Shown here: in pieces, positions 188-4,087 of the stretch
Layout: the number at the start of each line of letters is the position of its first letter
Numbering within the stretch: the first letter of the stretch is position 1
IMG/VR virus record: IMGVR_UViG_2713896775_000009
Length of the DNA stretch: 5,495 bases
Strand: one strand, 5' to 3'
Origin: a virus
Lineage: Duplodnaviria; Heunggongvirae; Uroviricota; Caudoviricetes
Made by a program: the position numbers and the translations under genes
Notes under the pieces: model-generated
Seen by the model: the letters and a program-made list of their open reading frames with translations, nothing else
Databases searched by the model: none
Told to the model about the DNA's origin: nothing

Positions 188-664
188 TTATTCAAGCAGG
201 CTACGCAACATCCAGGCAGTTTTCTCATGTAACTGGATACGTTGTGTAAGCAGATCTGCTGTGGCTTCATCATTCGCATTATTAACGAGCGGGAACAGGG
301 AGCGTGCAGTTTTAACCACGGTCTCCTGGCCCTGGACAAGATTTTCAATCATGTTTTTTGCTGCCGGAATATCCTTATCTTCATTAACCGCTGTTAAACG
401 TGAAAATTCATGATATGTGCCGGGCGCGAAGCATCCGAGCGAGCGTATACGTTCAGCGATATCATCAACGGCAGTGGCCAGCTCATTGTATTGATTTTCA
501 AACATTAAATGTAAGCTGTTAAACATGGGGCCAGTTACATTCCAGTGATAGTAATGTGTTTTTATATACAGGGTATAGGTGTCAGCAAGAAGCCGGGACA
601 GGCCGTCTGCAATCTCCACCCGGGATGATTCAGCAATACCAATATCAATGATTTGTTTACTCAT
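188..664 (-). CDS. Dps-family (ferritin-like, DNA protection during starvation) protein, 158 aa; host gene
   Basis: ORF with ATG start and TAA stop, GAGG about 7 nt upstream. The translation aligns by eye to E. coli Dps across the four-helix core (HW motif, conserved His/Asp/Glu ferroxidase-type residues, DDxTADxLT near the C-terminus) but is clearly not the K-12 dps ortholog. Confidence 0.85.
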
Positions 665-799: not shown

Positions 800-830
800 A
801 GGTCACTATCAGTCAAAATAAAATCATTAT
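800..830. promoter_or_regulatory. Int arm-type binding sites P'1-P'3
   Basis: Three tandem 10-mers, aggtcactat (800-809), cagtcaaaat (810-819) and aaatcattat (821-830), as in the lambda P' arm. P'3 overlaps the int stop codon. Confidence 0.7.
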
Positions 831-1897
831 TTGATTTCAATTTTGTCCCACTCCCTGCCTCTGTCATCACGATACTGTGATGCCATGGTGTCCGACTTAT
901 GCCCGAGAAGATGTTGAGCAAACTTATCGCTTATCTGCTTCTCATAGAGTCTTGCAGACAAACTGCGCAACTCGTGAAAGGTAGGCGGATCCCCTTCGAA
1001 GGAAAGACCTGATGCTTTTCGTGCGCGCATAAAATACCTTGATACTGTGCCGGATGAAAGCGGTTCGCGACGAGTAGATGCAATTATGGTTTCTCCGCCA
1101 AGAATCTCTTTGCATTTATCAAGTGTTTCCTTCATTGATATTCCGAGAGCATCAACATGCAATACTGTTGGGATGGCAATTTTTACGCCTGTTTTGCTTT
1201 GCTCGACATAAAGATATCCATCTACGATATCAGACCACTTCATTTCGCATAAATCACCAACTCGTTGCCCGGTAACAACAGCCAGTTCCATTGCAAGTCT
1301 GAGCCAACATGGTGATGATTCTGCTGCTTGATAAATTTTCAGGTATTCGTCAGCCGTAAGTCTTGATCTCCTTACCTCTGATTTTGCTGCGCGAGTGGCA
1401 GCGACAGGGTTTGTTGTTATATGGCCTTCAGCTATTGCCTCTCGGAATGCATCGCTCAGTGTTGATCTGATTAACTTGGCTGACGCCGCCTTGCCCTCGT
1501 CTATGTATCCATTGAGCATTGCCGCAATTTCTTTTGTGGTGATGTCTTCAAGTGGAGCATCAGGCAGACCCCTCCTTATTGCTTTAATTTTGCTCATGTA
1601 ATTTATGAGTGTCTTCTGCTTGATTCCTCTGCTGGCCAGGATTTTTTCGTAGCGATCAAGCCATGAATGTAACGTAACGGAATTATCACTGTTGATTCTC
1701 GCTGTCAGAGGCTTGTGTTTGTGTCCTGAAAATAACTCAATGTTGGCCTGTATAGCTTCAGTGATTGCGATTCGCCTGTCTCTGCCTAATCCAAACTCTT
1801 TACCCGTCCTTGGGTCCCTGTAGCAGTAATATCCATTGTTTCTTATATAAAGGTTAGGGGGTAAATCCCGGCGCTCATGACTTCGCCTTCTTCCCAT
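827..1897 (-). CDS. int: Lambda-type tyrosine integrase Int, 356 aa
   Basis: Translation MGRRRSHERRDLPPNLYIRNNGYYCYRDPRTGKEFGLGRDRR...WDKIEIK is near-identical to phage lambda Int as I recall it, with the same length and the catalytic Tyr in the C-terminal ...ASQYRDD... segment. Confidence 0.97.
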   Translation of the reverse strand: MGRRRSHERRDLPPNLYIRNNGYYCYRDPRTGKEFGLGRDRRIAITEAIQANIELFSGHKHKPLTARINSDNSVTLHSWLDRYEKILASRGIKQKTLINYMSKIKAIRRGLPDAPLEDITTKEIAAMLNGYIDEGKAASAKLIRSTLSDAFREAIAEGHITTNPVAATRAAKSEVRRSRLTADEYLKIYQAAESSPCWLRLAMELAVVTGQRVGDLCEMKWSDIVDGYLYVEQSKTGVKIAIPTVLHVDALGISMKETLDKCKEILGGETIIASTRREPLSSGTVSRYFMRARKASGLSFEGDPPTFHELRSLSARLYEKQISDKFAQHLLGHKSDTMASQYRDDRGREWDKIEIK

Positions 1898-2093
1898 TTC
1901 TGATCCTCTTCAAAAGGCTACCTGTTACTGGTCGATTTAAGTCAACCTTTACCGCTGATTCGTGGAACAGATACTCTCTTCCATCCTTAACCGGAGGAGG
2001 GAATATCCTGCACTCGCGTACCCATCGACGAACTGTTTCAAGGCTTCTTGGGCGTCGCTGGCGTGCGTTCCACTCCTGAAGTGTCAAGTACAT
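1875..2093 (-). CDS. xis: Excisionase Xis, 72 aa
   Basis: Translation MYLTLQEWNARQRRPRSLETVRRWVRECRIFPPPVKDGREYLFHESAVKVDLNRPVTGSLLKRIRNGKKAKS matches lambda Xis as I recall it; 23-nt overlap with int, as in lambda. Confidence 0.95.
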   Translation of the reverse strand: MYLTLQEWNARQRRPRSLETVRRWVRECRIFPPPVKDGREYLFHESAVKVDLNRPVTGSLLKRIRNGKKAKS

Positions 2094-2120: not shown

Positions 2121-2140
2121 AAAAAACCGCCATCAGGCGG
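2121..2140 (-). terminator. Putative intrinsic terminator (minus strand) upstream of xis
   Basis: Hairpin ccgcc-atca-ggcgg (2127-2140) followed on the minus strand by UUUUUUCUU (complement of 2119-2126). It is part of the lambda-identical backbone. Confidence 0.4.
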
Positions 2141-2300
2141 CTTGGTGTTCTTTCAGTTCTTCAATTCGAATATTGGTTACGTCTGCATGTGCTATCTGCG
2201 CCCATATCATCCAGTGGTTATAACAGTCGTTGATGTTCTCTGCTTCGATAACCCTGTTGAATGGCTCTCCATTCCATTCACCTGTGACTCGGAAGTGCAT
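2133..2300 (-). CDS. Small lambda-backbone ORF, 55 aa (lambda orf55-like), unknown function
   Basis: ATG at 2300 with GGAG about 7 nt upstream; translation MHFRVTGEWNGEPFNRVIEAENINDCYNHWMIWAQIAHADVTNIRIEELKEHQAA. The TGA stop lies in the loop of the 2127-2140 hairpin. Below the 60-aa cut-off of the supplied ORF track, so found by hand. Confidence 0.5.
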   Translation of the reverse strand: MHFRVTGEWNGEPFNRVIEAENINDCYNHWMIWAQIAHADVTNIRIEELKEHQAA

Positions 2301-2312
2301 TTATCATCTCCA

Positions 2313-2337
2313 TAAAACAAAACTCGCCGTAGCGAGT
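2313..2337 (-). terminator. Putative intrinsic terminator (minus strand) downstream of the 142-aa cargo gene
   Basis: Hairpin actcgc-cgta-gcgagt (2322-2337) followed on the minus strand by UUUGUUUUA (complement of 2313-2321). It lies at the left boundary where lambda identity resumes. Confidence 0.45.
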
Positions 2338-2383
2338 TCAGATATAATTTCCACCAAAGGCAGTAGTTGCTTGATGCTAAGAA

Positions 2384-2812
2384 TTATTCAATATCTATTC
2401 CTGTAATCTCTTTTATCTTTTTCCTTGCAAAGCCTTTTGCTAGTGATTTTGAAACACTCATAAGTGTACTAATTCCCTCATCCTTAAAGTTTGTTTTTAT
2501 AGCTTGCCAGACATCCTTTTGACGTAAGTCAGCAATAAAATCATGCCCTCTTGCTGTCAACCTCAGTGGTACTTCGATCCAACTATATCCAACACCTTCC
2601 CCTAACGCTTTGGACAATATATGACCGAACCCAGGTTTTCCATCAACCCTGACTATTAATTCGTAGTCACATAATAATCGCATATGGAAAATAAAATCTT
2701 GGTCATATCTATTAAAGCCATTATCCTCTAGTTCACTAAGCATCGTGTCAGGGCCACGAGTTTTTTCGAATGCGATAAGTAGATCTTTTAGATATTGCTG
2801 GTCTAATTTCAT
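2384..2812 (-). CDS. Hypothetical protein, 142 aa (cargo gene A), function unknown
   Basis: ORF with ATG start and a strong GGAGG Shine-Dalgarno 5 nt upstream, TAA stop. It is not part of lambda. No family recognised with confidence; the N-terminal MKLDQQYLKDLLIAFEKT may resemble small phage-associated DUF-type proteins. Confidence 0.7.
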   Translation of the reverse strand: MKLDQQYLKDLLIAFEKTRGPDTMLSELEDNGFNRYDQDFIFHMRLLCDYELIVRVDGKPGFGHILSKALGEGVGYSWIEVPLRLTARGHDFIADLRQKDVWQAIKTNFKDEGISTLMSVSKSLAKGFARKKIKEITGIDIE

Positions 2813-2822
2813 TGCCGCCTCC

Positions 2823-2834
2823 GTGACATGTCAC
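2823..2834. repeat. Perfect 12-bp palindrome GTGACATGTCAC in the intercistronic spacer
   Basis: Read directly from the sequence; it lies between the stop of cargo gene B (2841) and the SD/ATG of cargo gene A (2812). Confidence 0.6.
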
Positions 2835-2840
2835 AGAGAT

Positions 2841-3179
2841 TTATATCATTAATTTTGTTTCGTGCCAGCCTTTGGTCACCCAGCATTGTGAGTCACCATT
2901 ACACGGGCATGAATTAACAGGAACTCTCTCGCCGCACTTACCGCACCGTTTTCTGCTGATCGATTTTATACGCCAGCGCACACGTGCATCATCCTGGCGG
3001 CTCAGTAACGCGATGTACTCACCAAACTCGCAAGGCGCACGCCTGAAGCGACGCGTGGCACAGTTACGCTCCAGCATTTCAATTTCCTGAGCATCAAGTA
3101 CAAGCTCCAGCTTACGCATACCGGATGATGCTTGCTTGGCTCTCTGATCGGCTTTGTGCTCTGTTGCTGATTTAGCCAT
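2841..3179 (-). CDS. Hypothetical Cys-cluster (zinc-ribbon-like) protein, 112 aa (cargo gene B), function unknown
   Basis: ORF with ATG start, AGGA about 9 nt upstream, TAA stop. The C-terminus carries CGKCGERVPVNSCPCNGDSQC (C-x2-C...C-x-C...C). It is not lambda Ea8.5, whose sequence I recall as different. Confidence 0.65.
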   Translation of the reverse strand: MAKSATEHKADQRAKQASSGMRKLELVLDAQEIEMLERNCATRRFRRAPCEFGEYIALLSRQDDARVRWRIKSISRKRCGKCGERVPVNSCPCNGDSQCWVTKGWHETKLMI

Positions 3180-3372
3180 TCTGCTTTTCCTGCATCAGGA
3201 GAAAGACAATCATGGCGGCGCGGATACTTCCGGTATCTTTATACGCGATATTCCCCTTCAATGGCACATACAAGAAGAGAGCCATCAACAGGAGTGATTG
3301 AGGAATCGACAACCAGCAACGCTTAATTATCTATAGTGTCGTATTTGCTTCATAAAATATGGCGAATAACAC

Positions 3373-3404
3373 AAAGCCCGCAGCAGCTCATTGTGCGGGC
3401 TTTT
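3373..3404. terminator. Putative bidirectional intrinsic terminator downstream of cargo gene C
   Basis: Hairpin aaagcccgca / tgcgggcttt (7-bp GC-rich core 3376-3382 / 3394-3400, extendable by A:U pairs, 11-nt loop), flanked by an A-run on one side and a T-run on the other. It sits ~70 nt past the stop of gene C. Confidence 0.45.
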
Positions 3405-3472: not shown

Positions 3473-4087
3473 TTATCTAAAAGTCTTTCCACTTTTAACA
3501 TCTAGGTATATTCTGTTCGACAACGTCATTCCTCCGCAATATGTGAAATAGATGTTTTCACCCTTATTGCTTGATGCCATCCACCCTCCGATTTCCTTAA
3601 AATCGCTTTCCGTGCAGACCCCTTCATTTATTAACTTCCTAGCTGCCGAAGAAAACTCTTTTTTGTATATACGGTAGTCATCAGATCCTTTGATTAAAGT
3701 ATCATCTCCGCTCGCATTTTCAGCAGGATCTGATGGCCTTTCACTGCTAAGATCACTAAATTTAACCCATTCTGAAAACTTGCCATTAACGATTCCATTT
3801 TTTCTTGTGCAGGATTTATTACCTTCTTTAATATATTCGCTTTCCCCTCCAACACATGAGGCTGAATATGGCTCAGTTATACGAACCCATTCACCTTTTT
3901 TTTCTAGAAAATCTACGCCTTCCCTGAAAAATAGTTTCCCAGCCACTCCACATTTACTTGAAGGGCAGGTATGTCTTTCCGTTCGATCAACAACAACCCA
4001 TAGTTTTGATTCATTTTTTGCCATTGCCGATGGTATTTGAGATGAGACAATTAACGTAAGCCCTAAAATTAGTATTGATTTTTTCAT
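3473..4087 (-). CDS. Secreted/periplasmic protein with N-terminal signal peptide, 204 aa (cargo gene C), function unknown
   Basis: ORF with ATG start and AAAGGAA SD, TAA stop. N-terminus MKKSILILGLTLIVSSQIPSAMA-KNE is a classic Sec signal (basic n-region, hydrophobic core, AxA cleavage motif). Six Cys in the mature part. Visibly AT-rich. Confidence 0.75.
   Translation of the reverse strand: MKKSILILGLTLIVSSQIPSAMAKNESKLWVVVDRTERHTCPSSKCGVAGKLFFREGVDFLEKKGEWVRITEPYSASCVGGESEYIKEGNKSCTRKNGIVNGKFSEWVKFSDLSSERPSDPAENASGDDTLIKGSDDYRIYKKEFSSAARKLINEGVCTESDFKEIGGWMASSNKGENIYFTYCGGMTLSNRIYLDVKSGKTFR

Follow-up and report, generated by a model that had tools for sequence, protein, structure and literature searches.

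The window, by which we mean the whole 5,495-nt stretch of viral DNA analysed here (IMG/VR record IMGVR_UViG_2713896775_000009, Caudoviricetes), is the left arm of a lambda-like prophage adjoining dps, and its features are collected in Table 1. Between positions 2300 and 3300 it is 99.8% identical to phage Chlobot, and lambda itself has ea8.5 and ea22 at the place occupied in the window by gene A, gene B and the 204-aa ORF. Terminator-like hairpins bracket the B–A unit, the one on the plus strand separating the 204-aa ORF from the region upstream of B. Given these hairpins on both sides, B–A may be a separate inserted cassette. The 204-aa ORF has a hydrophobic, signal-peptide-like N-terminus and no Pfam match, is moron-like, is missing from lambda and also sits between two terminator-like hairpins. 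A 191-kb plasmid of E. coli ECONIH5, pECO-cbb3 (L318), carries a copy 100% identical to window positions 2300-3300, with the same succession of genes (orf55, A, B and an orf63-like gene) and with IS110 and IS5 elements flanking it. At the other end of the arm (188-830), near-lambda integrase and attachment-arm sequence adjoin dps and not ybhC, the neighbour of this integrase in E. coli FDAARGOS_1077 (L002), and the expected att core also looks unlike that of lambda. These differences point to integration at another site or to a rearrangement.

Table 1. Features of the window and exact copies of the 12-bp motif in complete phage genomes
Sequence	Feature	Position	Strand	Description
Window	dps	188-664	-	
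Window	Palindrome within dps	249-260		AGCAGATCTGCT
Window	int	827-1897	-	
Window	xis	1875-2093	-	
Window	lambda orf55-like gene	2133-2300	-	
Window	Intrinsic-terminator-like hairpin and T-run	2320-2339	-	3' of gene A
Window	Gene A	2384-2812	-	142 aa; DUF2513 / phrog_585
Window	Mini-ORF	2810-2829	-	6 codons
Window	Shine-Dalgarno GGAGG of gene A	2818-2822	-	5 nt upstream of ATG
Window	Extended inverted repeat	2818-2839	-	Predicted 9-bp RNA hairpin; lineage-specific
Window	Hairpin 3' arm	2826-2818	-	UCACGGAGG
Window	Hairpin loop	2830-2827	-	CAUG
Window	Hairpin 5' arm	2839-2831	-	UCUCUGUGA
Window	Core motif GTGAC-AT-GTCAC	2823-2834	none	GTGACATGTCAC; perfect 12-bp palindrome
Window	Gene B	2841-3179	-	112 aa; phrog_536 ('transcriptional regulator')
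Window	'DNA repair protein' pseudogene fragment	3242-3319	-	Just upstream of B
Window	Terminator-like hairpin	3385-3401	+	
Window	204-aa ORF	3473-4087	-	phrog_8310
Window	Palindrome within 204-aa ORF	3900-3911		TTTTCTAGAAAA
Window	Ea22-like, DksA-like, orf61 and orf63 genes		-	
Epsilon15	3 exact copies	2142, 19517, 39612		
TL-2011b	2 exact copies	11500, 32282		
ZF40	3 exact copies	5125, 7622, 14944		
Yersinia 42.18	1 exact copy	11708		P2-like, B 37% identical; one-mismatch copy at 11675, 33 bp away
Chlobot	1 exact copy	17494		Lambda-like; B–A junction
Lambda	0 exact copies			No B

The sequence-only reading had drawn attention to a perfect 12-bp palindrome within the B–A intercistronic spacer and next to the ribosome-binding site of gene A, and this description was borne out. 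On the minus strand the stop codon of B, TAA (2843-2841), is followed by ATCTCT, the palindrome, GGAGG (2822-2818), CGGCA and the ATG of gene A (2812-2810). The palindrome thus lies inside a 28-nt spacer (2813-2840), at 0-1 nt from the Shine-Dalgarno sequence according to whether this is counted as GGAGG or GAGG. By count alone it is within chance, and it gains significance only by comparison with other loci: the window contains three perfect 12-bp palindromes, the expectation being 1.34 for uniform sequence and 1.55 from dinucleotide shuffles, of which 77% contain at least one. The other two, inside dps and inside the 204-aa ORF, are both at chance level. No further or degenerate copy of the motif was found in the window at up to two mismatches. 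The palindrome is not followed by a T-run, and the closest terminator-like site on that strand is the one 3' of gene A. A promoter at this position was rejected, there being no sigma-70-like match between B and A, as were CRP, FNR and LacI-type sites, which differ in spacing or in half-sites. The ATG at the centre of the palindrome opens a mini-ORF (ATG TCA CGG AGG CGG CAA TGA) that ends on a TGA overlapping, as ATGA, with the start codon of gene A. The mini-ORF is not preceded by a Shine-Dalgarno sequence of its own and is probably incidental. In E. coli FDAARGOS_1077 the palindrome itself (L002, 2513-2530) is the insertion point of an IS1 element; homology to the window stops at 2826, and gene B and all beyond it are missing.

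DNA searches revealed that other phages are homologous to the window over gene B only. These phages lack gene A, and their B stands last among the early genes, before the terminase genes. In epsilon15 and TL-2011b the same 12-mer stands at the end of B with the TGA stop codon inside it (GTG TGA CAT GTC AC). Among 84 loci with close relatives of B, the exact 12-mer was found at or over the B stop codon in 79, and no fewer than three unrelated kinds of sequence come after it in this set: gene A, a 70-aa ORF, and a terminator with terS. The homology to other phages breaks exactly where the motif ends on its downstream side. The settings include lambda-like, epsilon15-like, ZF40-like and P2-like phages, whatever is downstream. 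Klebsiella phage ST11-OXA245phi3.2, in which B has 68% amino-acid identity, keeps the 12-mer and continues with a LexA box and a umuD-like gene; Pectobacterium phage ZF40 (62% identity) has it 2 nt after the TAA; and Pantoea AH07 (55% identity) has GTGACCTGTCAC, with one central mismatch, and then xis. Absence or degeneration of the palindrome in homologous loci would have spoken against a function, and the comparison gave the opposite picture. The 12-mer is far better kept than its flanks, remaining exact where the B coding sequences share only 50-70% of their nucleotides and nothing downstream is related. Gene A was considered as the owner of the motif and rejected: the motif is present without A in epsilon15, TL-2011b, the Klebsiella phage and ZF40, and there is no palindrome before the A homologues that lack B upstream (L151 and L219). 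One diverged B–palindrome–A unit was found (L164), with an A product 70% identical to that of the window and a B-like gene 54% identical to the B of ZF40. Some epsilon15-like phages have the 70-aa ORF between motif and terminator (L046, 693-905), and in L003 and L093 only its last codons are left after 11511, as an 8-codon remnant (MHDEFDGF, then stop), which shows that cargo was repeatedly gained or lost right behind the motif.

An independent set was obtained by scanning one genome per species, which yielded 58 loci with B 36-93% identical, from Escherichia, Citrobacter, Klebsiella, Pantoea, Erwinia, Serratia, Xenorhabdus, Providencia, Proteus, Morganella and other genera. In 32 of the 58 (26 with an AT centre) GTGAC-N2-GTCAC was present at -25 to +75 nt relative to the end of B, where chance predicts about 0.006 loci, and 47 of the 58 had at least one copy within 4 kb. 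The converse search, with the 14-mer TGTGACATGTCACA alone, retrieved 80 viral stretches, 20 of which encode a B homologue in the part fetched; several of the 80 carry two copies each.

Both the half-sites and the distance between them are constrained. GTGAC and GTCAC separated by 2 bp occur 57 times in 447 kb (0.43 expected), spacers of 0, 1 and 3-7 bp gave 0-1 sites each, and the reversed order GTCAC-N(1-3)-GTGAC was not encountered in the same 447 kb. The central dinucleotide of the 57 sites is AT in 47, CT in three, GT in three, AC in two, and GC and AG in one each. Such variation, confined mostly to the centre, is the pattern of two half-sites that a protein would contact. Conservation just outside the motif is at background, save that T is favoured immediately before it and G or A immediately after. 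The last codon of B differs between loci (GTG, ATG, CTG, CCG or TTG) while the nucleotides of the motif are fixed, and the constraint therefore acts on the nucleic acid and not on the protein.

About 0.003 exact copies are expected per genome, and the copies found in complete genomes are listed in Table 1. In epsilon15 and TL-2011b each of the five copies precedes an intrinsic terminator by 0-41 nt, read along the gene that ends there, and the stop codon of epsilon15 gp18 also falls inside a copy. A terminator-like hairpin with a T-run was present within 70 nt of 21 of 52 distinct copies, compared with 2.6% of random positions in the same DNA. ZF40 and its relatives L159 and L162 have two copies inside genes, on either side of the immunity region; the flanks of these copies have diverged while the 12-mer has not. 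No terminator follows the motif in the window, in ZF40 or in the Klebsiella phage. A physical genome end (cos or pac) was entertained, the phiV10 and Tyrion records ending inside the motif, but those of epsilon15 and SPN1S run past it, and the motif is still found where terminase genes are far away; we judge the coincidence to be probably a convention for opening records. The Yersinia P2-like loci L120 and L148 have the motif and a one-mismatch copy about 33 bp apart, as does L314 (11675 and 11708). These pairs, three helical turns apart and beside a terminator-like hairpin, are the only tandem arrangement seen.

An all-versus-all comparison of ORFs of at least 40 aa identified B as the only ORF family common to the five complete motif-bearing genomes of Table 1. 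This excludes any further phage protein shared by all five, speaks against a different phage-encoded binder, and leaves B or a host factor. The B protein is predicted to begin with a basic helix followed by a core resembling a ribbon-helix-helix, and its C-terminus is rich in cysteine (C79, C82, C91, C93, C99). A first model built on a shallow alignment had a pLDDT of 66; rebuilt with 51 sequences (pLDDT 81.5), it comprises a basic helix (residues 5-18), an extended segment (19-29), two further helices (30-42 and 52-74) and the cysteine-rich tail. The model looks like a ribbon-helix-helix protein and its best match among solved structures, a weak one, is MatP bound to matS. Searches of Pfam, NCBIfam and the PDB gave no significant sequence relatives of B, and Foldseek comparisons of the model with the PDB and BFVD were uninformative. 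A palindromic motif of strict spacing that co-occurs with B is what would be expected of the cognate site of a ribbon-helix-helix protein. We propose, with somewhat more belief than doubt, that the motif is the site of a B dimer on double-stranded DNA. The dimer would recognize the half-sites GTGAC and GTCAC at their strict 2-bp spacing, and gene B and its site, which usually overlaps the TGA stop codon of B, would be inherited as one module of binder plus site. Of the functions first suggested for the palindrome, an operator for a dimeric regulator thus emerges as the best-supported, with the correction that the site is tied to gene B and not to the ribosome-binding site of gene A. No description turned up in full-text searches on the 12-mer, on MatP-like proteins of phages or on gp49 of epsilon15, and the 'regulatory protein' paper on vB_EcoP_ZX5 concerns a repressor, an anti-repressor and an integrase, not B.

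The other function suggested for the palindrome was an RNA hairpin modulating translation of gene A. In this account the B–A mRNA folds so as to bury the Shine-Dalgarno sequence of A, which is translated only when a ribosome ending at the TAA of B melts the stem; such a hairpin may add to a role in DNA locally, and as the explanation of the motif it is possible but doubtful. The flanks UCUCU and GGAGG extend the core by CUCU/GGAG to a 9-bp stem with the whole of GGAGG in its 3' arm, which folds at -10.7 to -10.8 kcal/mol (z = -2.8 to -3.3), only 2 or 3 of 200 shuffles being as stable. Compared with the canonical layout, in which the TGA lies in the palindrome, about 10 extra bases place the TAA just upstream of the 5' arm and make that arm. 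A downstream Shine-Dalgarno sequence follows the motif by 0-1 nt at three independent junctions (the window, the epsilon15-like 70-aa ORF and L164), and translational coupling of A to B through a stem melted by the ribosome at the TAA of B is plausible. However, the 12-mer alone yields -1.2 kcal/mol, no better than shuffles, and copies inside coding regions and beside terminators have no Shine-Dalgarno sequence after them. C5 and G8 are invariant though unable to pair across a 2-nt loop, and the variants are not mostly of the wobble type. The B–A junction is identical in all A-bearing loci, which leaves no variation against which to test the hairpin, and no covariation was seen in homologous loci. 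With the CUCU/GGAG extension missing from other contexts, a single junction to consider and no compensatory stem changes in any variant copy, the hairpin cannot explain the family-wide conservation. The further suggestion of an RNA processing site found no support. In phage Mu the small zinc-finger protein Com is encoded upstream of mom, and a hairpin near the downstream Shine-Dalgarno sequence controls translation. This precedent is relevant only to the local B–A hairpin. Com binds RNA and lacks the ribbon-helix-helix fold, and the motif of B is found mostly where no gene follows.

In a second alternative the motif would serve to decoy or recruit a host protein, chiefly MatP, with B merely linked to the motif. 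We consider this improbable. The comparison of genomes leaves room for a host factor, no phage protein besides B being shared, and we take the hosts of all motif-bearing phages to be Enterobacterales, which have MatP. The half-sites are, moreover, identical to those of matS, GTGAC[AG]N[TC]GTCAC, with the consensus GTGACATTGTCAC (PMC3603311, PMC8669397). MatP binds matS through a central ribbon-helix-helix and a four-helix bundle (PMC12756933). The phage motif, however, corresponds to GTGACATTGTCAC minus one central base, being 12 bp long instead of 13 with a spacer of 2 and never 3 bp: the 13-bp site with its 3-bp spacer does not occur in 663 kb of B-associated DNA, the two sets of which gave 57 and 10 sites with the 2-bp spacer. 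Homology between B and MatP is not detectable (hhalign probability 0.1%; no PDB match). B is without the N-terminal four-helix bundle and the C-terminal coiled coil of MatP and has the cysteine-rich tail instead, and it is phage-borne, with one site embedded at its own 3' end. Prophages have been reported to be without matS altogether (PMC3603311). In addition, the motif stays GTGAC/GTCAC in Xenorhabdus prophages, although the MatP of the related Photorhabdus thracensis binds the E. coli consensus matS only weakly and the abundant candidate site identified in that species is GTTAC-N3-GTAAC (PMC8669397). The missing 3-bp spacer, the lack of homology to MatP, the reported absence of matS from prophages and the unchanged motif in Xenorhabdus together favour a phage-encoded reader over host MatP, and a site for a host factor would have no need to accompany gene B. 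The SlmA-binding sequence GTGAGTACTCAC is likewise a 12-bp palindrome with the same outer GTGA/TCAC as the phage motif (PMC3020112); its inner four bases are GTAC where the motif has CATG, and SlmA is a host protein of the TetR family.

A third possibility is a sequence-specific signal that acts with intrinsic terminators, on pausing, termination efficiency or the RNA 3' end, and independently of B. The excess of copies near terminator-like hairpins and the placement of the five epsilon15 and TL-2011b copies speak for it, but we give it little credence, because the window, ZF40 and the Klebsiella phage have the motif with no terminator following it, two of the ZF40 copies are in genes, and both the tie to B and a strict palindrome without covariation are left unexplained. 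Finally, a chance palindrome or passive linker at a mosaic boundary, shared by recent descent only, would fit the chance-level occurrence in the window and the break in homology at the downstream edge, but is very improbable, and effectively refuted, given an exact motif at such divergence of B and multiple unlinked copies per genome.

We therefore return to B as the reader of the motif. In phages with multiple copies the extra sites are at the ends of transcription units, by terminators, or flank the immunity region, and B would probably mark or insulate such boundaries by acting as a roadblock or by bridging sites, much like MatP at matS. Binding may block read-through, bridge sites or feed back on B. 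In the window, where B has a single site, the protein bound at the B–A junction could limit transcription into A. Gene A would have been joined directly behind the motif, the terminator coming only after A, unlike the usual layout of motif and then terminator, and A resembles inserted cargo that separates the motif from its usual terminator. A more ambitious version, in which B is a functional analogue of MatP with an 'off-by-one' matS, marking the ends of transcription units and flanking the terminase operon or the immunity region, we regard as unlikely. As an organizer of this kind B may form bridges between sites, or may stop RNA polymerase or loop-extruding SMC complexes, and the one-base difference from matS may keep the site unseen by host MatP or may interfere with MatP.

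That a small dimeric DNA-binding protein has a palindromic site is in itself nothing new. The new elements are the B family, its strict matS-minus-one site, and the placement of that site at the gene's own 3' end and at terminators. The operators of Arc, Mnt, CopG, ParD and FitA lie over promoters, upstream of the regulated operon, and their tandem sub-sites are usually occupied by tetramers, whereas the motif of B is a single 12-bp site downstream of the gene, with other copies by terminators or in genes. A site inside or at the edge of the binder's own gene, and co-inherited with it, is also seen with lambda O and the ori iterons, and the pac site recognized by TerS lies in or at the edge of terS. 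Those sites serve replication or packaging; the motif, in contrast, keeps its place with B far from such genes. If B binds the motif, a widespread family annotated as 'hypothetical' or 'transcriptional regulator' gains a recognition sequence and a testable function, and the dispersed exact sites at transcription-unit boundaries would hint at an unrecognized layer of genome organization or insulation in temperate phages. The near-identity to matS further invites the question of cross-talk with, or avoidance of, the Ter-macrodomain system of the host, which is of interest as prophages are reported to be without matS. In prophage annotation the motif offers a compact marker for the B module.

Several other signals recur around gene B. 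The pseudogene fragment just upstream of B in the window is annotated by RefSeq as a short 'DNA repair protein' and is UmuD-like. In Klebsiella, Citrobacter and Pseudocitrobacter loci a LexA box is situated just downstream of B (for example TACTGTTTAAATATACAGTA in L086, where a umuD-like gene is annotated downstream of B), and B and SOS-regulated umuD-like genes are recurrent neighbours. At four Serratia and Symbiopectobacterium loci (L229, L231, L232 and L235) the LexA-box-like sequence ATACTGTTTTTATATACAG replaces the palindrome at the B stop codon, so that a different operator occupies the position of the motif. An Aeromonas phage (L316) with a B homologue 31% identical lacks the motif; it contains GGTGATCACC three times (25521, 28903 and 29183), always in coding DNA, and this repetition is probably compositional. 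In Pantoea and Erwinia loci (L087, L230, L234, L237, L239, L244, L254, L261, L262 and L264) the near-palindromic sequence CCTGTTGCAGCAGG is conserved 10-20 nt after the motif of B, a position that in AH07 (L087) is upstream of the excisionase gene.
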